From a virus (lineage: Duplodnaviria > Caudoviricetes): DNA of 24,218 nucleotides. Shown piece by piece: positions 1 to 15,391 of this stretch (the stretch's first letter is position 1; every line of letters starts with the position of its first letter). Under the pieces are notes generated by a model, which saw only the letters and a list, made by a program, of their open reading frames with translations, ran no database searches and was not told the origin of the DNA. The stretch spans positions 1 to 24,218 of IMG/VR virus record IMGVR_UViG_3300048851_000089. One strand, written 5' to 3'. Position numbers and translations under genes: made by a program.

Positions 1-157
1 CCGCCGCGGCGATCAGCAAGCCGGCCTTCGCCGACGGGGTGCCGAGCCGCATCGACTTCTCCCGGCGATCATAGAGGCGCTGCCATTCCGGCGCCTCGCC
101 GCGCTCCGCCCATGCCTCGCCAAGGACTTGGTTGACCCACGTCCGTAGAAGGTTCGG
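1..157 (-). pseudogene. terL: 3' part of the interrupted terminase large subunit (GpA-like); runs off the left edge
   Basis: Minus strand reads PNLLRTWVNQVLGEAWAERGEAPEWQRLYDRREKSMRLGTPSAKAGLLIAAA, matching the GpA 'N..LGE.W' segment that precedes the nuclease motif. No ATG/GTG/TTG in frame between the upstream in-frame stop and the att core. Confidence 0.9.
143..157. repeat. Satellite att core, left copy (CCGTAGAAGGTTCGG)
   Basis: Identical to 11143-11157; encodes PNLLR of TerL on the minus strand. Confidence 0.95.
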
Positions 158-177: not shown

Positions 178-1362
178 CTACGCGGCTATTTGCGTCAACC
201 TTGCGTCAGGAATTGCAGCCAATTTCGCGCCGATCGCGAGAACCGCCGCGTGTCGATCCGCCGGTTTCGTGATGACGTGGGCATAGACACCCATCGTGAT
301 TCCGGGGTTTGCATGGCCCATAAGCCGCGACACGTCGGCGACCGCGAGCCCGTTATGCAGCCACCAACTCCCAGCGAAATGCCGCAGCGCGTGGAAGTGA
401 TGCGGATCGCCCGGGACCAGCACGCCCGCATCGCGCAGGAGATCATGCCATGCCCGCGTGATGTTCCGATTGTATAGCTTGCCGCCGCTCGACGTGGTGA
501 AGGCGAGGCCCCAAGGGTTCGACTTGGCGTGTCTCTCTAACCACTCCCGCAGCATCGCGACGACGTGAGCCGGCATGGGGACCACGCGCTCCCCGGCGAC
601 GGTTTTTGGCGCCTTGATCTCGTGCAGCGCGTTGAGGCTGTATCGTACCGTGATCGCCTCGCCGTCGAGGTCGATGCACGACACAGGCAAAGCGAGCAAT
701 TCGCCCACGCGAAGCCCGCAGCAAGCCGCGATATGAACCATGCACGCCAGCATTGCCGCGTACCGGACCTTGTGGTTCGGGCGCCTCTCAAGGACCGTCC
801 GCAATACCGCGCTGGCCTCGTCGAGCGTGAACTCTCGGATCCGCGGCTGTGGAGCGCCGCGGATGCCTCGCAGCGCCGCCGCAACCGGATTGGTGAGACA
901 ATAGCGATGTCGGTTCGCAAATCGCTCCACGGTCGCCAGGAAGCCTAGCACCGGACGCGCGACATGCGGCTTCATCGTCGCGGACAGCTTGTGATGCAGC
1001 TTATCGACGTCCGCCGCCCGCAGGTCTTTGAAAATGACGGTCCCGATCGTCGGCGCGATATGCAGCGACACGAACCTCGAGATTTTCATGACGTGCAGCC
1101 GCGACACCTCGCCGCGCGCCTCGCGCTTCCCGGCATCGGCGAGATACCGGGTGCAGACGTCGGCGACGGTCAGGCTGGCGGTGGGCCCGACCATCGTACC
1201 GTCCTCGGATTCGCGCTCCACCTTGCGTTTGAACGCGTCCGCCTCTTTCTTCGTCGCGAATTGCTTGGAGGGACGCCCGCCGTCGCCGTCGCTGTAGCGT
1301 ACCGTCCAAGCCTCTTTCTCGACGCCGTTGTACGTCCACCGGCGCTTGTGCACGCTCGCCAT
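178..1362 (-). CDS. int: Tyrosine recombinase/integrase of the satellite (394 aa)
   Basis: Catalytic set GLRVGE, APKT, HALRH, MGHA, GVYAH; N-terminal arm-binding-like region; GGAG RBS before the ATG at 1362. Confidence 0.95.
   Translation of the reverse strand: MASVHKRRWTYNGVEKEAWTVRYSDGDGGRPSKQFATKKEADAFKRKVERESEDGTMVGPTASLTVADVCTRYLADAGKREARGEVSRLHVMKISRFVSLHIAPTIGTVIFKDLRAADVDKLHHKLSATMKPHVARPVLGFLATVERFANRHRYCLTNPVAAALRGIRGAPQPRIREFTLDEASAVLRTVLERRPNHKVRYAAMLACMVHIAACCGLRVGELLALPVSCIDLDGEAITVRYSLNALHEIKAPKTVAGERVVPMPAHVVAMLREWLERHAKSNPWGLAFTTSSGGKLYNRNITRAWHDLLRDAGVLVPGDPHHFHALRHFAGSWWLHNGLAVADVSRLMGHANPGITMGVYAHVITKPADRHAAVLAIGAKLAAIPDARLTQIAA
191..208 (+). promoter_or_regulatory. Putative integrase arm-type sites, TGCGTCA x2
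   Basis: TGCGTCA at 191 and 202 (11-bp spacing); the same heptamer occurs three times near the other end. Confidence 0.65.
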
Positions 1363-2463: not shown

Positions 2464-2649
2464 CCCACGGACACGATGCACCGATAATATACCTAACGCA
2501 AGCCGTCCCCCGCCAAGGGGACCGGCTCCGCGCGTGTGCCGCTATTCCGGCTCACCCGGTGGCGGTCGCCGAAATATAGTTGGTGCCTGCGCAGCCCGAT
2601 CGCGGGCGCGTTCCTTGACGTCGGAGGGGGGTTGGGACACCATCGCTGC

Positions 2650-3747
2650 ATGGACAGGATAGAATTAGGCAGGCGGCCGACAGGCAATAGATCTGCCGTT
2701 ACGCGGAATAGCGGCCTTGATGCTTTGCGCCTTTGCCTAGCAGTGTGGGTGGCGGTGTTTCACATTCACGCGCTACCGGGCGATACTTTGCCCGCAATGT
2801 ATCAGTGGTTTAGCCCGCCTGCTGCGGTGGCGACCTTCTTCACGATTAGCGGTTATCTCATACTCGGCGGCTTGGCCTCCCGGCCTGGCCTGAAAGCATA
2901 CGCGCAAAAGCGGCTTCTCCGGATCTACCCAGCTTATTTTATCGTCGTCATAGCAGCGGGGCTGGCCTTTGCCCCGACGAGTGCTGAGTTCTTTCGATAC
3001 GAAAGCTGGAACCTGATTTTCTTGAATTTCGTCGAGCCCGGATTTGCATCACTTCCGAACGGAGGCGCTGTAAATGGGTCCCTGTGGAGCATCAAAGTCG
3101 AGGTGGCGTTCTACGTAATCGCGCCGTTGCTCGCCATCGGTTGCCGGCGTTTCAGTCCGGCTCTGCTCCTCGGGCCCTTGGCTATTTGTTCCGCGGTCTT
3201 TGGCATCTTCTCGATGTCATATTCGGCTTCTCTAGTTCACCAGTTGCCGGCGCAGCTATGCTACTTCTGCATGGGCGGTCTGCTTTTCCACTACGGAAAG
3301 CAGTTGTCTCGATTCAAATACCCGATGATTGCAGCTGGCTTGGCGACCCTGCCGCTGGGCCCCTTCCTCGACCTTTTCGGTGTTGCCGCGATCGTGTTGG
3401 CCGTGATGTCAATCCGATGGGTGCCGTCGATGCCGATCGACCTTTCCTACGAAATCTATCTCGCCCATTATCCGGTTATTCAGGCGTTGACCGTTGCGGG
3501 CTTGGCGGGCTCAGCGCTCTTTACTTTTGGCACGTCGGTCGTGGCCGCGATCGGGCTGATCTCATCAATTGCGGCATCCTTTTGGCTGGCCAAGTATGCC
3601 CGGCGGCGCGCGGGCGGCAGCTTCCGCCGGGCAGCAATTAATGCCCTCCGATCTACCCGCGTCGACGGTCAGTTAATGAACCCGGCGGCGCGCATAGCGC
3701 CCTCGAGGGCCAGCACACGTTCCATCGTAGATTGCGCCTCAGCTTGA
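2650..3747 (+). CDS. Acyltransferase-3 family (OafA-like) membrane O-acetyltransferase
   Basis: Motifs LDALR, FFTISGYLI, KRLLRIYP, GSLWSIKVEVAFY, SYEIYLAH; many hydrophobic segments. Start uncertain (TTG at 2632 also in frame). Only + strand gene in the satellite. Confidence 0.9.
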   Translation: MDRIELGRRPTGNRSAVTRNSGLDALRLCLAVWVAVFHIHALPGDTLPAMYQWFSPPAAVATFFTISGYLILGGLASRPGLKAYAQKRLLRIYPAYFIVVIAAGLAFAPTSAEFFRYESWNLIFLNFVEPGFASLPNGGAVNGSLWSIKVEVAFYVIAPLLAIGCRRFSPALLLGPLAICSAVFGIFSMSYSASLVHQLPAQLCYFCMGGLLFHYGKQLSRFKYPMIAAGLATLPLGPFLDLFGVAAIVLAVMSIRWVPSMPIDLSYEIYLAHYPVIQALTVAGLAGSALFTFGTSVVAAIGLISSIAASFWLAKYARRRAGGSFRRAAINALRSTRVDGQLMNPAARIAPSRASTRSIVDCASA

Positions 3748-5870
3748 GCGTATTCGGTGGAGGCTGAAGCCGCGAACGCCCCCTTGTTCGGCGAGCCGGT
3801 TCCGATGGTCCAGCCCGCGTCCGCCACCGGGCTGAGATCGATCAACTGCACGAGCAGATCGACGCCAGTCGCGCCGGCGCTCGCATTGTAAACGTTGATC
3901 GTCACGGTCGCGCCGAGCGGAATCGGTGCGTTCGCAATGGTCTTCGTCAGGTCGACTGTGTCAATGATGGTGGCGTAATCGACGCTCGACGGGAGTGTCA
4001 GCGCGGCGCGGAACGCACCATTCACGGTGACGATAAAGGCCCAGCCGGCGCTGGAAGTGCCGGCCGCCAACCTCATGCGGCTGGTAATCCGGTACACGCC
4101 AGGGTTGATGTCGACGCCCATCACGAAATTGAGAGCGAAGCCCTGCTCGATCGGCCCCTCTGCCGGGATGTTTGCGGGGACAGTGGTGCCCTTGGTCAGG
4201 CGCATTACGTAGCCGCCATCGAGTGCGGCGTCCGAATACATCTCCTTGATGCCGCCGCCGCCTGGCGCCCCCGGCGTACCCCAATAGTTATAGGCGGTGC
4301 AGGTATGGGACAGTGCCATGGGCCCCGCCGCAGTAATTCTCATAGGCTGGAAGGGGTTCGGGGCGTTCCGAAGTGGGTTGCGCGTAGCATCAAGCAACAG
4401 AATACGGGGGTGTATCGGTAGGATAGCTTGGATGGATGCCGGCGGATCAACAATACGGAGGCGGTAGTCAAACTCTGAGCTGCCCATATTAGGATTGGCG
4501 GGCGGATCGATGATGGGGGCGTAATCATAATCAACCACCGTCGCGCGCGGCGAGTAGATCGTGTTCTCGCGCGCTAAAGGCGCCAGGTGGAAAAATGGCG
4601 CTTCGGTGCCGACCTGCGGGGAATGTATCTGGGCCCCGTAGCCGTTCAGGTAGAGGTGCGAGATTGAGCCATGGCTCTCCAGCAGCGTCCCCCTGGAAAT
4701 CGTAGTCTTTGATCCTTGGTCGTATACTGTGTACGCCGGTTCTCCCGAATTTGGATTTTCGCTGCCCCCCAAAAACGCGCTTTCGATGCGGTTGTTGTTG
4801 CCGAAAAAGCCAATACCTTCGATCATGACCGAACGCCCGTTGCCGGACATTCGGGCCGAGATTATGCAGTTGTCACAGCCCTTCAGCCAGAATCCGCGGC
4901 GCCAATTGTAGACGACCGTCGACTCGTCTGCGTAGATGTGGAACGTCTTGCATGCGCGGAAGAAGTCGCCGGTGCCGAGTCCTCCCCATGCATAGCAATT
5001 CAGAAAACGGACGTTCTGGAGAAAGCTGTAATCGTCGATCTCGGGGCTGTCGTGGGGGGTGTGCGTCTCGGTGTCGCCGAAATCGAACATTGTGCCGGCA
5101 GGGTCGGTGGCATCGAACGATATGCTGTCGAACGTCCAGTTTGCATATTCGCGGATGGCTGGAGTCCGGTAGCTCACTTTCCAGCACGTGTCGGAGCCTG
5201 TGTACCGCAGCCGGCTTTGCGTGATGTAGGGGTTGTCGCAATTTGCGCCTTCGCCGACAAAGGTGAGGCCGGGCGGCAAAGGATTGTCTTCATCGGCGAT
5301 CGAACGCGAGACGATCGACACGCCCCCAGGAACAATGACACGCCGCGTGCCGGTCGCACCGGCAAAGGCGATGGCATCCCGCCACGCTTGGGTGTCATCC
5401 GTGATCGCGTCGCCCTTGAAGCCAAAGCTGTCCAGCCGGATCGACCTCGATGTCCTATCAAGGATTCCCTGAACCGTTTCGCCGCCGCTCGTCCCGATCA
5501 TCGCCGCGCCGGCCGGCCCTTCATATGCTGCCTTGCTAGCGTACCGCGCCTGCTCGACGGCTTCGGAGCCCACCTTCTTGTACAGGATCGCATAGGTCGA
5601 CGTGCCATCGCCGACGACGGTGAAGAACCCGTTTGCCGCGGTCGCCGCCAGTCCGGCCGCCGTCGTCGGAAAAAGCGTCCCGGCCGCGGCGACCGCGCCG
5701 GACTCCGCCAGGGCCGCCGTCGCCGCACTCTGTGCCGACGCATCCGCGCTGTCGGCCGCGTCGCCCGCGCTTTTGGCGGCGCCCGCGGCAACGATCCCCG
5801 CCAGTTCGGCGCCGAAAACACGAACGACGGCCCGACCGTCGACAGCCCGCACGGATGCGTCAGATGCCAT
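3669..5870 (-). CDS. Tailspike/tail fibre with pectin-lyase-like beta-helix (733 aa)
   Basis: Ala-rich N-terminus with a GLAAT..GFFTV..LY particle-binding-type motif; FGFKGDAITDDTQAW beta-helix cap; C-terminal GWT.GTG...ALE.AMRAAGFI. AAGGA RBS before the ATG at 5870. Confidence 0.8.
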   Translation of the reverse strand: MASDASVRAVDGRAVVRVFGAELAGIVAAGAAKSAGDAADSADASAQSAATAALAESGAVAAAGTLFPTTAAGLAATAANGFFTVVGDGTSTYAILYKKVGSEAVEQARYASKAAYEGPAGAAMIGTSGGETVQGILDRTSRSIRLDSFGFKGDAITDDTQAWRDAIAFAGATGTRRVIVPGGVSIVSRSIADEDNPLPPGLTFVGEGANCDNPYITQSRLRYTGSDTCWKVSYRTPAIREYANWTFDSISFDATDPAGTMFDFGDTETHTPHDSPEIDDYSFLQNVRFLNCYAWGGLGTGDFFRACKTFHIYADESTVVYNWRRGFWLKGCDNCIISARMSGNGRSVMIEGIGFFGNNNRIESAFLGGSENPNSGEPAYTVYDQGSKTTISRGTLLESHGSISHLYLNGYGAQIHSPQVGTEAPFFHLAPLARENTIYSPRATVVDYDYAPIIDPPANPNMGSSEFDYRLRIVDPPASIQAILPIHPRILLLDATRNPLRNAPNPFQPMRITAAGPMALSHTCTAYNYWGTPGAPGGGGIKEMYSDAALDGGYVMRLTKGTTVPANIPAEGPIEQGFALNFVMGVDINPGVYRITSRMRLAAGTSSAGWAFIVTVNGAFRAALTLPSSVDYATIIDTVDLTKTIANAPIPLGATVTINVYNASAGATGVDLLVQLIDLSPVADAGWTIGTGSPNKGAFAASASTEYAQAEAQSTMERVLALEGAMRAAGFIN

Positions 5871-5872
5871 TA

Positions 5873-6136
5873 TCAATTCCTTCGGGTGGTGGTGGCGAAC
5901 GTGGCCCAGCCGGCGGGCTGCTCGCGTCCGTGTGTTTCGATGCTGTCGGCGATGGTGCGCAGCTGGTCGACGATCGTCGCGGGTTCGCCGCAGCGCTCCC
6001 AGACCCGACGAATGATCGCGTGCAGGATGCCCGAACATGCGTCGGGCTCAAAAATGCCCGAGCACGTCATGTCATCAATCCAAGCTTGGGTGCGGTCGGC
6101 CACCGCCATCATCTCGGCCGGGTCGCTCGTCTGCAT
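5873..6136 (-). CDS. Hypothetical protein (87 aa)
   Basis: AGGAG RBS before the ATG at 6136; stops 2 nt before the tailspike start. Confidence 0.65.
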   Translation of the reverse strand: MQTSDPAEMMAVADRTQAWIDDMTCSGIFEPDACSGILHAIIRRVWERCGEPATIVDQLRTIADSIETHGREQPAGWATFATTTRRN

Positions 6137-6284: not shown

Positions 6285-8135
6285 TTAGACCGACGCGCCC
6301 GGGTTCATCACGGTGCCGCGATAGTCGACTAGGCCGGCGCCGATATCGATGCGGGCCTTGAACTGGACGCCGTCGACCTCGAACCCGACGCGGGTGTCGG
6401 TGAAGATCCCGCCTTGCCCTTCCAGGTCGCCGTATTCGAGAACGGGCCGGGTTGCCGGGTCGGAGAATAGCCGCCAGCTGAGCCCCAGCTGATAGGGATC
6501 GACCGACAGGGTGAGCTTGCCGGAGAACGGGTTTACATCGGCCACGGTACCCGCATTGACCACGGCGAGAACCTGCTCGGCGATGGTTTCGAGGGCGGGC
6601 CCGACCACGAGGTGCTTGGGCACTGCGTTGGCTGGCGTGCTGCCGTCGGCGTTCTTCTGCGTTCGGAGCAGCGCACGGGCAATCGAGAGGTTCGCGACAT
6701 TCAGCGTCCCCGCGACGACGATGTTGCCGTGGTCGGCATGATAGAGCGTCTTGCTATCGCTCGTCATCACTGCGCCGTTGCCGGCGATCATGCCGGAGAG
6801 CAGCGCCGACTGGGTTTCCGTCGCCGCGTTCACCCAGAACTGGGACAGCTGCAGGAACACGCCCAGGTCATCGTTCACCAGCGCCTGGCGGGTGATGTTC
6901 ATGATCCCGCCATAGGTCGACAGCTTGCTGCCGTTGCTGCCCTCGATCAGGTGGACCTGCTGGAATTCACCATTCTCAGGAACGTTGATCATACCCGCGG
7001 GGCCGTCCACGTTCAGATTGTAGCGGGTGCGGAAGTCGGTGTAATTCCGATTCCGCGCGATCGCCAGCAGCGGCGAGGGCAAAGCGCGGCGCGCTTCGGC
7101 GAGAACCCGCGTACCAGCGTTGCCGATCAGGGTCGCGAAGTCGCCCGCCGTGTGTGATCCATACCGGAGAACCTGGTTGACGACTGCCTGCCGACTGGCG
7201 AAGCGCACGGGCTCCCCGTTCCGCTCGAGCAGCGCGCGGGCCATGTCGACCACGCTCGCATCACGATACTCGCGCGCGCCCTCGCTCGGCTCGGTGCCGC
7301 TCATTCGGGCGTAGAGCGCGTCGGCGAAATTGTCGCGCAGCTGGCGGCTGTCGCCGCCCGGTCCGCCGCGCGACTGGCGGGGGTCGATCGATCCGAGCGA
7401 ACGATGCGCGACCAGCGCCGCCTCGATGCGTTCGTCGAGCTCGCGGCGCGACAGGGGTTCTTCGGCGTGCATGGCGAGCAGGTCGCGCTCGAACGAACGG
7501 GGCAGGTCGTCGGAGCGGTTGCAGCGGTCGCGGATGTAATCGACCGTGACGCCGCCGGCACGGTTGCGAGGCGCGGGGGTGGGGTTCGGTGCGTCAATGA
7601 TGTCGGGCATGGTCGTTCCTTTCGTTCGGACTTGTGCGGCCGCGTCGAAGGGGACGACGACCATCGACAACTCGACGGGCTCCCAATCGATCGCGTGCAT
7701 GACGGGGCGCTCTCCTGCCGTCTCGGTGCGCTCGTAGGTGTGGACGTTGTAGCCGACGGACAGGCTGCGAATGTGCCCGTCGATGATCTTGGCGACCGTA
7801 TCGGCAACGTCGGGCGTCTTGGCGAAGCGGACGCGGGCGATACCCTGCCCGTTCTCGATCCGCGCCGTCCCCGGCATCACGGAGCCCAGCACCGCGGCGA
7901 GCGATCGATCCTGATGGCTATCGATCAGGCACGCGCCCGCGTTGAGCCGGTCGAGGCGGACGTGCGCGGGGTCCATGCTCAGCGATTCGATGTAGTAGCC
8001 GCCATCCAGCCAATCGAACCGGGTGCCTTCGGCGCCTACCGACCAAACGACCTCGATCGAATTGTCGGACGGGTCGAACGATGCCGGCTGGAAAGTCGCC
8101 GCGCGGTTCGTGGTGACGGTGATGGGGTCTGCCAT
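6285..8135 (-). CDS. Prohead protease-major capsid protein fusion (616 aa)
   Basis: N-terminal HK97-type protease motifs (LIDSH, RSLSVGY, WEPVELSMVVVP); C-terminal Mu-gpT-like capsid motifs (HTAGDF, ITRQALVNDDLG, LYHADHGN, GFEVDGVQFKARIDIGAGLVDYRG). Confidence 0.9.
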   Translation of the reverse strand: MADPITVTTNRAATFQPASFDPSDNSIEVVWSVGAEGTRFDWLDGGYYIESLSMDPAHVRLDRLNAGACLIDSHQDRSLAAVLGSVMPGTARIENGQGIARVRFAKTPDVADTVAKIIDGHIRSLSVGYNVHTYERTETAGERPVMHAIDWEPVELSMVVVPFDAAAQVRTKGTTMPDIIDAPNPTPAPRNRAGGVTVDYIRDRCNRSDDLPRSFERDLLAMHAEEPLSRRELDERIEAALVAHRSLGSIDPRQSRGGPGGDSRQLRDNFADALYARMSGTEPSEGAREYRDASVVDMARALLERNGEPVRFASRQAVVNQVLRYGSHTAGDFATLIGNAGTRVLAEARRALPSPLLAIARNRNYTDFRTRYNLNVDGPAGMINVPENGEFQQVHLIEGSNGSKLSTYGGIMNITRQALVNDDLGVFLQLSQFWVNAATETQSALLSGMIAGNGAVMTSDSKTLYHADHGNIVVAGTLNVANLSIARALLRTQKNADGSTPANAVPKHLVVGPALETIAEQVLAVVNAGTVADVNPFSGKLTLSVDPYQLGLSWRLFSDPATRPVLEYGDLEGQGGIFTDTRVGFEVDGVQFKARIDIGAGLVDYRGTVMNPGASV

Positions 8136-8226
8136 GATCCTTCTATGCGGCCCGATCGATGCGAGGCGTAGCGGCGTGCTTGGGCTTAGGTATGCTTGTT
8201 GCGGCGTAGGGGTGCACGCCCTTGCA

Positions 8227-8433
8227 TCACGTCCCGATCGTTGAGCCTAAAACCGGCTCGACGTGCATGTTCATGACAAGCCGCCGGACGTCCTCGCTCG
8301 AATAGCGCACGCGCCCGCCGGGGGTGATCGTGTAGCCGATTGCGCCCTTTTTCCGCCAGCGGCGCAGCGTGTCCGGGTGCACCTTCAGCGCGCGTGCGGC
8401 CTGCGGCTCGGTCATGCCAAGGGGGTCACTCAT
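8227..8433 (-). CDS. MerR/Xis-like HTH DNA-binding protein (68 aa)
   Basis: MTEPQAARALKVHPDTLRRWRKKGAI...TPGGRVRY; ATGA overlap with the mini-TerS stop. Confidence 0.8.
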   Translation of the reverse strand: MSDPLGMTEPQAARALKVHPDTLRRWRKKGAIGYTITPGGRVRYSSEDVRRLVMNMHVEPVLGSTIGT

Positions 8434-8633
8434 TCGCCGGACTCGCCCGGCGCGCGAAGCACTACCCAGGCTGCGACGAACTCCCCCAAGGTCGCCCCAT
8501 CGGCTGGCAGCTGGCCGCGTGATCGTAGGACGCCGATCCATCGGCCCGAGACGCCGAAGAGGGCGCCGACTTGCGCGAGGGTGGGGCGGATCCGCGAAAG
8601 GTCACCTTCGGCCGCGCTCTTCTTCTTCGACAT
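8430..8633 (-). CDS. Mini-TerS: terminase small subunit DNA-binding domain only (67 aa), candidate packaging redirector
   Basis: 25/40 identical residues to the N-terminus of helper TerS (12131..12628) in a manual ungapped alignment; sits directly downstream of the satellite cos. Confidence 0.8.
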   Translation of the reverse strand: MSKKKSAAEGDLSRIRPTLAQVGALFGVSGRWIGVLRSRGQLPADGATLGEFVAAWVVLRAPGESGE

Positions 8634-8691
8634 AAGACTTCTTCCCATGCAGACTGCGAAAAAATGGCGGAAAACCGCTGAAAATCGGGAC

Positions 8692-8777
8692 AGGGAGGAA
8701 GAACCTAGGGCATTTCTGCGCCTAGCGATCTTTTGCGCCTTTGCCCCCCTCATTACACTCAAGCGGGGGAAGGACCC
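8692..8777 (-). other. Satellite cos site (cosQ/cosN-like)
   Basis: 86-bp ungapped homology to 12679-12764; minus strand GGGTCCT...GGGGGGCAAAGGCGCA..GATCGCTAGGC. Confidence 0.85.
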
Positions 8778-8838
8778 GACAGCCCGACCGATCAATGCGC
8801 CACCGCGCAACAATCGGTCGCGGCGTCGGTCCGGCCGG

Positions 8839-9084
8839 TCAGGCGCGGCCCCCGGCATGCGCGCTCCACCCCACGACGGTGGGCTCGGTCAGCGCGGCGA
8901 GCGCGGCGGGTGCGAGCGCGCGGCCGACCTCGCGTTCGATGATGATCGTTGCGGCCGTGATCAGCGCCGCCGCCTTCTCAGTCGGGTCGGTCGTGATGAA
9001 GTCGGCAAGCGCCAGCGCGGCGCGCGTGTTCGCGGCGTTGCGCTCGGCAATCTCTTGATCATCGGTCAGCTGGGCTTCGTGCAC
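8839..9084 (-). CDS. Hypothetical protein (81 aa)
   Basis: AGGAG RBS before the GTG at 9084; helical, Ala-rich. Confidence 0.65.
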   Translation of the reverse strand: MHEAQLTDDQEIAERNAANTRAALALADFITTDPTEKAAALITAATIIIEREVGRALAPAALAALTEPTVVGWSAHAGGRA

Positions 9085-9102
9085 GGTATGTTCTCCTAGT
9101 TG

Positions 9103-9223
9103 TGTCCCGCGGGACAGTTGGGGGACGTCCCGAGGGACGGACGCGAGACCGTCACGTGACGTCACGTGTGACGCTCGGTGACGATGCGTGACGCATGCGC
9201 GTGGCAGTGCTCCGGCGATGCTC
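9103..9223. repeat. Intergenic cassette of phased short repeats and palindromes (GGGAC, GTGACG and TGCTC families)
   Basis: GGGAC at 9111/9122/9134; GTGACG at 9156/9168/9178/9188; TGCTC at 9208/9219; palindromes TGTCCCGCGGGACA and GTCACGTGAC. Confidence 0.75.
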
Positions 9224-9229
9224 GCAGCA

Positions 9230-9958
9230 TCACCGGCCGGCGCCCAGCTCGGTCAGGCGCGCGATACCCTTGGGGGTCAGCAGCGCATGGTTGACCAGCT
9301 TGGCCGGCTTGTGCGGCCCGCGGTCGAGGCGGTGGACCTTGTGCTCTATCAAGCCCTGATCGATCTTCGCCTGATACCCGACCAGCCCGTCATTGCCTCG
9401 ATAGAGCCAGGCGTGTTCTTCCAGCCAGTCGAACAGGCGACCGGGCTTCACGCCCATTGCCTTCGCCGCGTGCGTGACGGCAAGCGAGCCTTGCGCCTCT
9501 GTCAGCTGTGCCAGCGCCGCCGCCTGCGGCTCAAGGGCGGCGATGCGCTGGTCTGCGGCGAGGGCGCGGCCCGTGTGATCGATCAGCAGCCTGTGGAGCA
9601 CCGCGGGGTCGCTCAGGTCGAGCGCAGGCGCGGGGCGGCCGTAGCTGCCCGTCTGCCGGATGGACGGCAGGACCTCCCGCGTTACCCATTTCGTGAACCG
9701 CTTGGCCGCGGCCTTCCGACTGCGCAGTGCCAGCTTGTAGAGCCCGCTCTCGTCGATGACGGTCGCCTCCTGACGGCCGCCAAGGGTGTCGGTAATGACG
9801 ACATCCTTCTCGTCGTCGTCGAGCCGGGTCGCGGCGTCGCGCGGGTTCGCGATGTCGAGCACGGCACAGACGTCGTTGAGCGAGAACCAATGGGCGCCGT
9901 CGCGCTGCAAGACGCGCACCGGGTGGTCGTCGAACTCGAAAGGGACGATCGCGTTCAT
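9230..9958 (-). CDS. Phage antirepressor, Bro-N plus ANT/KilAC domains (242 aa)
   Basis: WFSLNDVCAVL, IDESGLYKLALRSRKAAAKRFTKWVTREVLPSIRQTGSY, C-terminal AAKAMG..LFDWL..WLY...LTPKGIARL; GGAG RBS before the ATG at 9958. Confidence 0.92.
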   Translation of the reverse strand: MNAIVPFEFDDHPVRVLQRDGAHWFSLNDVCAVLDIANPRDAATRLDDDEKDVVITDTLGGRQEATVIDESGLYKLALRSRKAAAKRFTKWVTREVLPSIRQTGSYGRPAPALDLSDPAVLHRLLIDHTGRALAADQRIAALEPQAAALAQLTEAQGSLAVTHAAKAMGVKPGRLFDWLEEHAWLYRGNDGLVGYQAKIDQGLIEHKVHRLDRGPHKPAKLVNHALLTPKGIARLTELGAGR

Positions 9959-9991
9959 GGTCATCTCCATGCGTGTTGCCGCCGCGCCGGA

Positions 9992-10200
9992 GGGGTGCAG
10001 CGGGTGCGGGGCGCAGGGACTGCGGGGCGCAGCCGGTGCGGGGGTCGGTAGGAATTTACCGGGGCCAGGGGTGCCAGTGTGACGGGCGTCACCGTGGCGG
10101 GGTGTCAGGCTGGCGGGGGGTCCAGCAGGTTGACCGGTCAAGGGCGTGGACCGGTCCAGCGCGTTGACTGGTCCGGTGGATCGGGTGGACGTCCACCGGA
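9992..10200. repeat. Non-coding cassette of consecutive, different iteron-like tandem arrays
   Basis: 3x YGCA-N5-TGC-GGGG (9996-10044); 3x YGYCA-N3-TGRC-GGG (10072-10120); 3x GGTCMA-N5-TKGACY (10119-10169); TCCGGTGGA/TCCACCGGA-type repeats (10172-10200). Confidence 0.85.
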
Positions 10201-10227
10201 CTATTTTGGAGGGAGCCAAATAATTCA

Positions 10228-10362
10228 CGGGTCCGATTTTCGTACCGCACGGGCCCGATTTTCGAGCCAACCCGCTATGCGTCGGGCCCGATTTTCGAGC
10301 CCGTCTCCTCGTATGGGTGTCAGGCGGGTCGGGCCCGATTACCGGGCCACATATATATCTAC
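10228..10362. repeat. Putative satellite replication origin: four 19-bp iterons plus an AT-rich tract
   Basis: CGGGYCCGATTTTCGWRCC-like copies at 10228, 10250, 10283 and a more diverged one at 10330, then ACATATATATCTAC; adjacent to the rep-like gene. Confidence 0.75.
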
Positions 10363-10377
10363 CAAGGGATACCCGTT

Positions 10378-10755
10378 CTAAGCTGGTCGCCAGTCCCGGT
10401 ACTCGTGCGTTGCCGCCGCCCGCTCTGTCGGGTGAAACGTCAGGCGCCAGCTGGTCGCGAGCTTCACCTTGACCGTGAAGGCGCCGCGCTGTGTTGCGGC
10501 GATGAACCCGTGCGCCTCCAATTCATCGAAGGCGGCGGCGGCAGCCCCCCGGCGGACCCCAATCGCATCCGCGGCGGCGCGCTCGGCAAGGAACAGGTCG
10601 CCGTTATTCGTGCCGTTGTGCAGGCGGGCGAGGTAGAGCAGCAGCTTCGCCGCGGTGCCGCCCAGGTCGATCCATGCCGGACTATCGAGGATCCGGTGAT
10701 CGAACATCACGAACGGCGGGCAGCGGCTGCGGCCTTTCCGAGTGACGTTCGCCAT
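10378..10755 (-). CDS. Winged-helix protein, putative satellite replication initiator (125 aa)
   Basis: ILDSPAWIDL...LLLYLARLHNGTNNGDL...AFDELEAHGFI; located between Xis and the iterons. Confidence 0.7.
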   Translation of the reverse strand: MANVTRKGRSRCPPFVMFDHRILDSPAWIDLGGTAAKLLLYLARLHNGTNNGDLFLAERAAADAIGVRRGAAAAAFDELEAHGFIAATQRGAFTVKVKLATSWRLTFHPTERAAATHEYRDWRPA

Positions 10756-10757
10756 GG

Positions 10758-10970
10758 CTATTCGACGCGCGCCGCGGCGGCTTCCTGTGCGCGGAAGTGC
10801 TTCGCCAGCGACGATCGCAGCGCGCACACGGTAGCGCCTACCTTGAACGTCGGCAGGTCGCCCTTGTCATGCAAATGATAGACCTGCTTCCGGCTCAACT
10901 GAAGGTGAGCTGCGATGGCAGCGACCCCATAGAGCAGGTCGGCCGGGTTGGCGTTCGTTGCGTCACTCAT
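10758..10970 (-). CDS. Excisionase/AlpA-like HTH protein (70 aa)
   Basis: LLYGVAAIAAHLQLSRKQVYHLHDKGDLPTFKVG; first gene inside the right att. Confidence 0.8.
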   Translation of the reverse strand: MSDATNANPADLLYGVAAIAAHLQLSRKQVYHLHDKGDLPTFKVGATVCALRSSLAKHFRAQEAAAARVE

Positions 10971-10988
10971 GCGTCAGTCCTTGCGTCA
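10959..10988 (+). promoter_or_regulatory. Putative integrase arm-type sites, TGCGTCA x3
   Basis: TGCGTCA at 10959, 10970 and 10982; same motif as 191/202. Confidence 0.65.
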
Positions 10989-12168
10989 CCGAGCCGCCGG
11001 GACGATCCCAGAAACGGCGGATTTCTGCGGTTCTAGTGGGGAGCGCCGGGGAAAGGCGCCGGCGAGAAAAAGGGCGCCGGAGCGCCCAGTTTTTGGCAGT
11101 TTTCTGGGGGTTTGAACCGCCTTCGCGTTCATTCACCTTAACCCGTAGAAGGTTCGGATCCTTGCGGACCTCCATGAACTCGCGCGCGATCTCCAGCCAC
11201 GCGGCGCCCGGGTGCTGGCTGTACGCCGCCCAGATGTGGAACGAGCGATGCCTGGGGAACGCGATCGGGTTGTGTGCGCGCCACTCGCCGTTCTCGTCCA
11301 TCCACGGCTTTTCAGCCTCATCGATCTCGCATCCGTTTTCGCACTGATACCAGGCGCGGGTCGGATGCTCCTTCGGCGCCCAGCGGATGCCGGCGCCGGT
11401 GCCGTCGCCGAACACCAGCGTCTGGGACAAGCCGCAATGCGGGCAGGGGACGTAACGGAATTCCTGGCTGCCCTGTTCGAACAGGGCGTCGATCCGACTG
11501 AAGCCTTTCACCTTCGGGGTCGAACCCGCAGCGCTGAAGCGCCGCGGCGATGTCAGGTTGCGCTTGAACGCGAGGCGGGCGGGATCGCCTTCCTCCTTCG
11601 TCGCCCAGGGGTAGCCGTCGCATTCCTCAAGGAACACGTCGTCCGCAGTGACGCGGCGAAACTCCTTCGGACTGTTCGCGCCCTTGATCTGGATCCAGCC
11701 GCCCTTGTAGCGTTTGGCCCTGATCTGGTTGTCGGCGTGCCGCGGCTTGAACGTCGCGACCGACCGGACGACCGGCCACTGCAGCACCGGGTCGAGATCG
11801 TCGCGGCTGAACTTCTCCGCATCGTCGATCGTCGGCTGGTAGATCAGCGTTCGCGCAGGGTCGAACTTGATGCGCCAGGCGACGAAGCACTGCAGGATCG
11901 TAGAGTAGCCAATGCGGCTGCTCTTCCTGACCGAAAGCTGAGACGTCTCCGGATCGGTGAACGCGTCGGCGATGTCGGCCTGAAACGGGAATGGGCGGAT
12001 GCGCGCGCCGTCATCCGACCTCGCATGCTCGACCATGAACTTCGAAAGGGGCGGCCGCTCGCGCGGCCGGCACGCGGCAAGCCAGCCTGCGGCAAGCGTT
12101 ACACCGTGCGCCCCGGGGGCGCGGTACGGCTCAGGCGCCGCCTTCGTCTTCGGGCTCGCCCTCATCAA
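10963..12168 (-). CDS. terL: Terminase large subunit (lambda GpA family), 5' part interrupted at 11143; last 59 codons are satellite-derived
   Basis: Walker A VRKSSRIGYS, Walker B VFLEECD, GSTP, YVPCPHCG, SFHIWAAYS; overlaps the terS stop. Start at 12168 or 12165. Confidence 0.93.
   Translation of the reverse strand: MMRASPKTKAAPEPYRAPGAHGVTLAAGWLAACRPRERPPLSKFMVEHARSDDGARIRPFPFQADIADAFTDPETSQLSVRKSSRIGYSTILQCFVAWRIKFDPARTLIYQPTIDDAEKFSRDDLDPVLQWPVVRSVATFKPRHADNQIRAKRYKGGWIQIKGANSPKEFRRVTADDVFLEECDGYPWATKEEGDPARLAFKRNLTSPRRFSAAGSTPKVKGFSRIDALFEQGSQEFRYVPCPHCGLSQTLVFGDGTGAGIRWAPKEHPTRAWYQCENGCEIDEAEKPWMDENGEWRAHNPIAFPRHRSFHIWAAYSQHPGAAWLEIAREFMEVRKDPNLLRVKVNEREGGSNPQKTAKNWALRRPFSRRRLSPALPTRTAEIRRFWDRPGGSVTQGLTHE
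11143..11157. repeat. Satellite att core, right copy
   Basis: Identical to 143-157, exactly 11,000 bp away. Confidence 0.95.
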
Positions 12169-12628: not shown

Positions 12629-12678
12629 TTCCCTGCTCCATCTCGCGAAAGCCGCAGAAAACCGCCGGAAATGGCACG

Positions 12679-12764
12679 AGGGAGGAAGAACTATAGTGCA
12701 TCTCGTGCCTAGCGATCTTCTGCGCCTTTGCCCCCCGTATTACCTTGGATGCCGGGAAGGACCC
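12679..12764 (-). other. Helper cos site (cosQ-cosN)
   Basis: Minus strand GGGTCCT-TCCCGGCATCCAAGGT-AATACG-GGGGGCAAAGG-CGCAGAAGATCGCTA parallels lambda GGGTCCT(cosQ)...TTACG-GGGCGGCGACCT-CGCGGGTTTTCGCTA; upstream of terS. Confidence 0.85.
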
Positions 12765-12823
12765 AAGAGCAGGGGTGCCAACCCTGTTCGCGACCGCTAG
12801 GCTGGACCGGAGGAGACATTGCG

Positions 12824-14115: not shown

Positions 14116-14748
14116 TCATGCCGCCTTGGCCTGATCGGTCTCCGGCTCGCCCGGGTCGATGGCGAACAGGCGGATATAGTCGGCGCGCGTCGGCTTCCGG
14201 CTCGGCGCGCTGCTGGCGCCTTCCACCTTGGTGGGCCGCGCGGGCTCGCCAGCTGGTCGTTGGTCGGAATAGCGACCAACCTTGAACTGCTTGCAGATGG
14301 CGTCGAGCTCGGCTGGGGTCGCATACTCCTGACCTGGCGCCGGGAGGGCGGGGGCTGCCGCCTCCGCGGGCGGCCGTGCCAGCCGCTTGCGGCGCTCCCA
14401 AGCATCGCCCACTTCAGCCATGATGGCGGGCACGATCTTCGCGGGATGATCAGCTTTCAGCATCGCGGCCGCGGCGCCGCGCTGAAGGAGTCCGATCGGC
14501 ATGGCGTCCAGGGCGAGGCGAGCGGCCTCGAACCAAGTATCTTGGCTGTCCTCATCCATACCAACCGGCGCCACCAGTTGGAGGCAGGGCAGCAGGGTCG
14601 CGATGAACTGATCATCCGACGCTGGCTTCAGATCCCGATAATCCGCGGCGAGCCCTAAAGCGCTCGGCAGCATCGACGGTTCGACCTTGGCCACTCCGCG
14701 ACTGCCGGTTTCCGCCCAAACGTCCAGTTCCTGATCCTGATTGCCCAT
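14116..14748 (-). CDS. Replication-region protein, possible helicase loader (lambda P position)
   Basis: Follows and overlaps rep; helical core WFEAARLAL..LLQRG...HPAKIVPAI. Function inferred from position only. Confidence 0.6.
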   Translation of the reverse strand: MGNQDQELDVWAETGSRGVAKVEPSMLPSALGLAADYRDLKPASDDQFIATLLPCLQLVAPVGMDEDSQDTWFEAARLALDAMPIGLLQRGAAAAMLKADHPAKIVPAIMAEVGDAWERRKRLARPPAEAAAPALPAPGQEYATPAELDAICKQFKVGRYSDQRPAGEPARPTKVEGASSAPSRKPTRADYIRLFAIDPGEPETDQAKAA

Positions 14749-15391
14749 CGTCTTTGTCCTGCTTGATTACCCAGTTTGCCCACGCTGCTTGCCAGTCCAG
14801 CTTCCGGCCTACGCCGGAGCGATCGTCGGCGTTCGCGGCCCAATTCCGAAAGCTCTCCAAGGCAGCGCGCGACCACTCGATGCCGCGCCGATCGGCGACC
14901 TCGCGGGCGACGGTCCCGTCGGCGAAGCGCTGATGCTTCCAGTCAGCGGGCAACCGAAAAGGCTTGGCCTTGGGCTCGGATGCGCGCTCGCGCTTCGGAG
15001 AAGGCGAAGCCTTCGGAGAAGTGATGTGTCCTGACGTATTGTCCGCAGCCGCTGCGGGGGTCCGCGTCGCTGGCTGCGGGGGTGCAATCGCTGCGGGGGC
15101 GCGACGCTTGCGGGGCGCAGTATTTACGGGGGTGCAATCGCTGCGGGGGTGCAGGGTGTAGGTGCAGCCTTTGCCGGGCCGCTCGTGGCGGGTCAGGTGG
15201 CCCGCCGCCGCCATCGACTTGATAGCGCCTTGGATCGTTCGCTCCGACTTCCGCGTCTTCTTCACGAGCTGCGCGATCGACGGCCAGCACTCGCCATCGT
15301 CGTTCGACCAGTCGGCGAGCGCCAGCAGGATCAGCATCTCGCTGTCCGGAAGGTCGAGCCCCCACACCTGGGTCATGATGCGGATGCTCAT
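14612..15391 (-). CDS. Phage replication initiator (N-terminal wHTH, DnaT-like C-terminus; 259 aa)
   Basis: LILLALADWSNDDGECWPSIAQL...SERTIQ; RLPADW...ESFRNW...DWQAAWANW; iterons in the linker. Confidence 0.85.
   Translation of the reverse strand: MSIRIMTQVWGLDLPDSEMLILLALADWSNDDGECWPSIAQLVKKTRKSERTIQGAIKSMAAAGHLTRHERPGKGCTYTLHPRSDCTPVNTAPRKRRAPAAIAPPQPATRTPAAAADNTSGHITSPKASPSPKRERASEPKAKPFRLPADWKHQRFADGTVAREVADRRGIEWSRAALESFRNWAANADDRSGVGRKLDWQAAWANWVIKQDKDDGQSGSGTGRLGGNRQSRSGQGRTVDAAERFRARRGLSGSEASVG
15044..15153. repeat. Helper replication-origin iterons inside rep
   Basis: YGCA-N5-TGC-GGGG(G) and near-matches at 15044, 15083, 15100, 15116 and 15133 (16-17 bp period), positioned as in lambda O-type origins. 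Confidence 0.85.

Follow-up and report, generated by a model that had tools for sequence, protein, structure and literature searches.

The repeat triplet upstream of the antirepressor gene of a prophage-borne satellite is, judged from its sequence, one module of a non-coding panel matching the replication origins of several phage initiator classes. This modular panel of foreign iteron mimics is real and is broader than the initial annotation had read it, which saw in the triplet copies of the iterons of the element's own helper. We propose, tentatively, that the panel lets the satellite borrow the initiator of whichever helper is present to replicate itself. The premise common to all functional readings, that helper initiators bind the panel modules, is very probably correct. 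The family to which the element belongs inserts in prophage late genes, appears to be undescribed and would represent a variant form of helper-site mimicry.

The window, that is, the whole 24,218-nt stretch of DNA analysed, is one virus record in which two att cores delimit an element of 11,000 bp (Table 1). Searched separately, the two TerL pieces aligned with a single unbroken TerL in all of 7 helper-like loci, where they overlapped by exactly the 15-nt core; the element thus interrupts the helper terL. The host is probably Sphingomonas, because close relatives of the element sit in Sphingomonas. One DNA run, which may be the source sample, contained contigs without differences over the element. 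Their depth was similar across element and helper, and no joint of att to att was among those listed, a result that speaks neither for nor against excision. No RNA sequencing run containing the stretch was listed.

Table 1. Features of the satellite element and of its helper in the window.
Feature	Positions	Strand	Remarks
helper terL, continuation past element	1..157	-	
att core, left end of element	143..157	+	15-nt direct repeat
tyrosine integrase	178..1362	-	PF00589
acyltransferase	2536..3747	+	cargo
tail-spike-like protein, 789 aa	3669..6038	-	cargo; weak matches (best E 4.8e-8)
protease-capsid fusion	6285..8135	-	41-42% identical to capsids of helper-like phages
HTH_17/MerR-like regulator	8227..8433	-	HTH_17 and MerR_1 above cut-off
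68-aa homologue of helper TerS N-terminus	8430..8636	-	Rpp-like by analogy
packaging-site-like copy of region upstream of helper terS	8650..8790	-	
module K	9088..9140		TGTCCC/GGGAC repeats, similar to those of one more rep class; less well supported
module G	9148..9200		GTCACGTGAC-type repeats downstream of ant
ant, Bro-N + KilAC antirepressor	9230..9958	-	start about 37 nt after module A
module A	9996..10043	+	three palindromic CGCA-N5-TGCR units, 16-nt period; helper rep iteron class
module B	10073..10114	+	three GYCA-N3-TGRC units, as in the iterons of a different group of O-like Reps
module C	10119..10174	+	GGTCMA-N5-TKGACC units, 17-nt period
C'	10171..10201		small palindromic TCCACC/GGTGGA repeat, possibly a further module; best rep match 12 nt
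module D	10228..10366		four GGGCCCGATTTT-type repeats + AT-rich element
winged-HTH (wHTH) protein, 125 aa	10378..10755	-	weakly O-like
excisionase-like HTH_17 protein	10758..10970	-	
att core, right end of element	11143..11157	+	inside terL
helper terL, 5' piece	11143..12168	-	GpA type
helper O-like replication initiator, rep	14612..15391	-	HTH_36
helper class-A iterons	15044..15153	+	inside rep, then A/C-rich element on rep strand

In its gene content the element resembles a PICI. Of the five core components given by de Sousa et al. 2023 (PMC10085698, drawn on in part), it carries four, an integrase, an HTH regulator (AlpA, MerR or Stl homologue), a capsid gene and a small terminase homologue, and its size is comparable to the roughly 10 kb of PICIs. 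The fifth, a primase-replicase module, was not detected: the element has only the 125-aa wHTH protein, and a search of 126 ORFs of seven elements (49 window ORFs of at least 75 aa within the element and 77 of six relatives) turned up no family of primases or helicases. We therefore call it PICI-like and not a PICI, while noting that a variant without an identified primase-replicase is described in the same source. It further departs from the PICIs described there in sitting inside a prophage late gene, in having its integrase at the distal end, and in carrying iteron-like modules of foreign initiators as well as a tail-spike-like gene. Nor does it qualify as a cf-PICI, as no TerL, portal or head-tail connectors of its own were found among its ORFs. 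On the question of structural genes beyond the capsid, the 789-aa ORF gave weak matches to tail and tail-spike proteins; together with the acyltransferase, this cargo (2536-6038) is unusual for a PICI-like element.

The 68-aa ORF had no Pfam match and aligned to the helper TerS with 63% identity over 40 aa (E 2e-16), and the neighbouring copy at 8650-8790 is about 80% identical to 12654-12770. Rpp of Gram-negative PICIs is likewise a short TerS-related protein beside a packaging-site-like copy (Fillol-Salom et al. 2019, PMC6739421, in the part used here). The likeness suggests that the pair may redirect packaging as Rpp does; here the pair is known from TerS homology and the site copy, and it concerns packaging, not the iteron panel. 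The same pairing of a pre-terS copy with a TerS N-terminal homologue was seen in relative G055. Among annotated phages no close integrase was found, all matches being below 60% identity and the 15 listed 26-29% identical. TGACGCA repeats occur at both ends of the element (186-206 and 10957-10990) and also in relatives; these are probably integrase arm sites and not iterons. A non-coding stretch at 2200-2470, which had no Rfam match at gathering score, is one we take to resemble the antisense-RNA leaders of P4/P1-type immunity regions.

Within the window, YGCANNNNNTGCGGGG is present six times, always on the + strand: at 9996, 10012 and 10028 in the satellite, with a period of 16 nt, and at 15044, 15083 and 15133 in the helper rep gene. 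Chance predicted 0.10 occurrences (sd 0.30) and no shuffle reached six. A tandem triplet of YGCA-N5-TGCG arose in 0 of 300 dinucleotide shuffles of the window and three times in 2.69 Mb of fetched DNA that had not been picked by pattern, once in a related satellite and twice in phage loci with class-A reps. The three tandem satellite units and the helper units thus exist in the shared orientation that the initial annotation had reported. The unit is palindromic (CGCA-N5-TGCG or, more loosely, CGCA-N5-TGCR), with G-run spacers. A shared period, also claimed, holds strictly for the satellite alone: exact helper units lie 39 and 50 nt apart, and a 16-17-nt period emerges there only when intervening degenerate units are counted (TRF on the helper cluster: 15073-15153, period 17, 4.8 copies). 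As had been noted, the N5 spacers differ between the two, and exact matches of module A reach at most 13 nt with any catalogued rep, compared with 14 nt with non-rep DNA.

The layout of satellite and helper, and the iteron class common to both, were borne out as well. To speak of copies of the helper's iterons is nevertheless too narrow, as it overlooks the other Rep classes: class A is widespread (about 390 IMG/VR stretches in an exact-pattern scan), an A-type module is found in most relatives irrespective of the host prophage, and the triplet sits in a multi-class panel. Of 80 IMG/VR matches to the class-A pattern that were fetched in full, 70 fall within rep homologues, a count that omits 40 of 120 matches (L191-L230) with short flanks. 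The description of the array as non-coding also seems right. A long frame passes through it into ant, yet in 10 members this frame stays open for anything from 10 to 188 codons, and a GGAG ribosome-binding site directly precedes the ant ATG in each of them, which makes non-coding the best reading. A read-through ORF (9230-10270) was dropped as the true start of ant.

Module A shares the interval separating the wHTH gene from ant with three other repeat families, D, C and B, and a second cluster (G and K) lies beyond ant, such that at least four foreign classes (A, B and C, with G beyond ant) stand beside the element's own repeats. In exact-pattern scans of IMG/VR, the module B pattern lay inside rep homologues in 24 of 35 matches and the module C pattern inside rep genes in 6 of 9. 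Modules C and G also contain longer identities to real rep genes, a 23-nt exact match to that of L308 and a 19-nt exact match to that of L395, which belongs to a further rep group; both exceed the background of at most 14 nt found in six times more non-rep DNA. For A, B, K and C', the longest exact rep match was not above background, with 13 nt for K (background 12) and a background-level match for C'. In an unbiased scan, 131 phage loci were gathered via a NusG-like gene and 78 of 118 candidate ORFs were confirmed as replication proteins; repeated 7-mers from 65 of these catalogued reps formed the word library, 13 of the 78 being dropped for too few repeated words. Just 9 of 483 intervals of 100 nt held at least three sites for any rep: three in the helper rep, four in the array and two in the post-ant cluster. 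We rejected the idea that the repeats are packaging signals, as they map to rep genes and the element has its separate packaging-site-like copy.

Module D is probably the origin of the element's own wHTH protein. It is retained, with its AT-rich flank, in the close wHTH relatives L017, L018, L044, L045, L046 and L107. By eye, the own-repeat block (10228-10366) seems inverted with respect to the distant wHTH relatives L019, L047 and L049; in these three the frame continues through the repeats, and the inversion coincides with the early stop in the window. A conserved hairpin-like CCGTAGCG-N3-GCGGTAGG motif, possibly a priming signal, was seen between own repeats and panel in L372, L374, L376 and L437, which are members with an HTH_36-type short Rep.

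The residues of the Rep recognition helix vary with iteron class: all 7 A* reps have D at position 2, all 16 B reps have R at position 7, and 4 of 5 C reps have SKQ, with the helper Rep helix, SERTIQGAI, being A-type. The iteron classes are therefore probably binding specificities of the Reps, and the catalogue pairs recognition-helix residues with iteron classes. Ten or more distinct classes are visible among the 78 rep genes (L292-L427), and rep modules in this same set of Sphingomonas-type temperate phages are highly mosaic.

Searches with the integrase and with the excisionase both picked out the element in 5 of 401 Sphingomonas genomes, with one further element among 391 genomes of the bacterial family and others in viral and metagenome contigs. 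A search of viral contigs with the single wHTH protein gave no matches; its relatives were found by alignment search. The 125-aa protein corresponds to only the N-terminal half of 271-342-aa relatives. We scored 18 distinct members, counting identical records once. In 15 of them the own Rep ends behind the HTH domain, complete copies running to 96-131 codons, and is of one of two unrelated types; in the other three the O-like Rep is full-length and has another gene after it, for which no match was found in the 15 short-Rep elements. A panel was defined as at least four catalogued reps covered, a threshold chosen after the data were seen. By this measure 11 of 15 short-Rep members have one, compared with 0 of 3 members whose Rep is full-length and 2 of 73 background windows. 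Scored as 'any cover', the comparison among these related members was 11 of 15 against 1 of 3 (p = 0.25; background 21 of 73). Module content and order differ among relatives, with modules gained or lost: G089 and L437 have own Reps that are 99% identical, yet L437 has extra K and C modules.

It seems plausible, if somewhat short of probable, that the family repeatedly shed the C-terminal half of its initiator and replaced it with a swappable iteron panel run by the initiators of unrelated temperate phages. An element that had lost initiator functions would keep its own repeats and one AT-rich element, and would update its panel by gain or loss of 50-bp modules. In this scheme helper Rep would bind module A, the element would excise and terL would be rejoined; Rep docked on the panel would direct helicase loading at the sole AT-rich element, kept beside module D, and the TerS-like protein and packaging-site copy would redirect packaging. 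Such a master-key origin is favoured by the location of the A, B and C patterns inside O-like rep genes, by the association of the panel with a short Rep, by the lack of any detected primase or helicase family, by retention of the own repeats and AT-rich element, by the confinement of scan hits to helper rep, array and post-ant cluster, by the class-dependent recognition helices with an A-type helper, and by module turnover between G089 and L437 despite near-identical own Reps.

Several observations speak against a borrowed initiator. Taken alone, module A has the tandem palindromic iterons of an O-like initiator class that characterize a lambda-type origin but fails to show the adjoining AT-richer unwinding element: the AT fraction of the 30 nt after it is 0.23, compared with 0.43-0.60 in 19 phage origins. 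Likewise, all 19 phage A/A* origins have an A/C-rich element behind their iterons, whereas the seven satellites checked show none behind the A module, although for three of them the read-out spanned only 11 nt. Lambda-type origins need tight spacing, yet the modules differ greatly in order and in how far they lie from the AT-rich element, with G and K more than 1.1 kb from it, beyond ant. Four of the 15 short-Rep members have no panel by our metric, and the post hoc threshold, the 'any cover' result and the relatedness of members weaken the association with short Reps. The 125-aa wHTH protein could also initiate alone: by eye, the part it lacks resembles a second HTH and not a loader-binding domain, so that it could be a self-sufficient plasmid-type initiator.

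The match between panel and resident prophage counts against the favoured reading as well. Of 7 testable cases, only 3 had a module of the resident class (2 of 6 if the window is set aside), this class being matched in the window (A), L107 (E) and G089 (A*) and absent from the panel in L017, G357, G311 and G602. This rate does not show tailoring of the panel to the resident helper. Left out of the count were L018 (no prophage seen), L433 (rep not identified), the short contigs L437, L443, L441 and L044-L046, and G055, as no rep was found in the 20-kb stretch beside its element. Nor was a class-A/B/C-type rep found in G001 with alignment A3.

The missing downstream element would fit a reading in which the foreign modules act as decoys that titrate or handcuff helper initiators and depress helper DNA replication, with the satellite copied by its own wHTH protein and module D, or passively inside the helper. 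We regard this as unlikely, though worth serious consideration. The modules are bare site pairs or triplets without the phage downstream element and are free in order and position, including the cluster beyond ant, and all three A units fit the consensus whereas several helper units are degenerate. In phage lambda, according to the part of Hayes et al. 2012 used here (PMC3349717), extra iterons without the AT-rich region act in trans on an O-type replicon, and the inhibition phenotype needs the iterons, not the AT-rich part. In the same source, however, ori-lambda alone was not inhibitory, oop being required too; the phage escaped inhibition when multicopy O/ori-lambda plasmids had no oop, which weakens pure titration, and the authors argue that handcuffing cannot explain the inhibition. 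Those plasmids were engineered, had one specificity and depended on oop RNA; in the window, no Rfam family was matched at gathering score. Decoys would also not predict that the panel goes with loss of a full-length own Rep, and three sites per class would presumably achieve little unless the satellite were already amplified.

The position of the array raises a different option, namely that helper Rep bound just upstream of ant switches the ant operon on or off and so reports helper replication. In seven members with two unrelated own-Rep types (window, L017, L018, L045, L046, G089 and G311), only 26-69 nt separate the end of the last A-type unit from the ant ATG. In L107, however, an extra ORF separates panel and ant, and modules G and K are located after ant; a search of 8000-11300 for promoters of the sigma-70 type gave none, a weak argument as the consensus may not fit the host. 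We therefore consider a sensor or operator role improbable.

Finally, the modules could be neutral relics, fragments of rep genes acquired while the element sat in prophages and now without function. Capture from phages is itself likely, given the long exact matches of C and G, and some members have no panel. That the scan picked up only iteron-like stretches, and that panels recur in two unrelated own-Rep lineages, makes an absence of present function very improbable. The half-sites of module A have moreover been kept while the spacers diverged to background similarity, a comparison that is partly circular, the units having been picked by pattern, and that lends weak support only.

Precedents for a borrowed initiator come from outside the tailed phages, and the comparisons that follow draw on part of each source. 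Begomovirus betasatellites likewise are satellites without a replicase of their own and have iteron-like motifs bound by the helper Rep (PMC10548238); they are single-stranded plant virus satellites with a rolling-circle hairpin and no integration, and they combine cognate and general motifs where our element has a row of class-specific modules. The staphylococcal oriT mimics of the pWBG749 family also belong to dependent elements that mimic helper cis-sites, in several specificity subtypes set by a DNA-binding protein (PMC8136818). These are origins of conjugative transfer, not of replication, and their function was shown experimentally. The element would work like both, and is related to neither.

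Characterized tailed-phage satellites mostly bring their own initiator. Among them, PLE relies on a RepA and iterons of its own (PMC7145576), and the same holds for PIMEs (bioRxiv 10.64898/2026.01.12.698999). How replication-less satellites are copied is an open question for some marine elements (PMC9618062), and the same question has been raised for Mulch and Flayer, satellites of Streptomyces phages that also have no key replication genes (PMC10690885); these have an unrelated organization, and the word 'iteron' is absent from the main text of that paper. In titles and abstract starts of the open-access literature we found neither helper-initiator iteron mimics in a tailed-phage satellite nor a description of this Sphingomonas satellite family, subscription papers lying outside that search. 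If the favoured reading is true, one origin would be served by the initiators of many unrelated temperate phages. Under either leading model, borrowed initiator or decoy, the range of helpers, as far as replication is concerned, would be legible from a row of binding sites, and the rapid diversification of phage rep and iteron classes could be partly satellite-driven. The cis-region is short and defined, and is open to direct test.

Fifteen members had context, and for 11 of these HMM or tblastn named the flanking gene, as terL of two families (five), a head protease (three), phrog_1924 (two) or the major head gene (one). It was called by eye in three more (G089, L440 and G311) and was not phage-like in L018. 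Late-gene insertions, at varied sites and with short end homology, were seen in the window, L017, L107, L283/L284, L372, L374, L376, L431, L433, L435, L437, L440, L442 and L443, in a survey whose IMG/VR matches are biased towards prophages. Relatives L281, L282 and L283 carry defence-like cargo, comprising a KAP NTPase, a DpnII/MboI-type nuclease, a TIR-domain protein, an MmeI-type restriction-modification fusion and DprA/SLOG.
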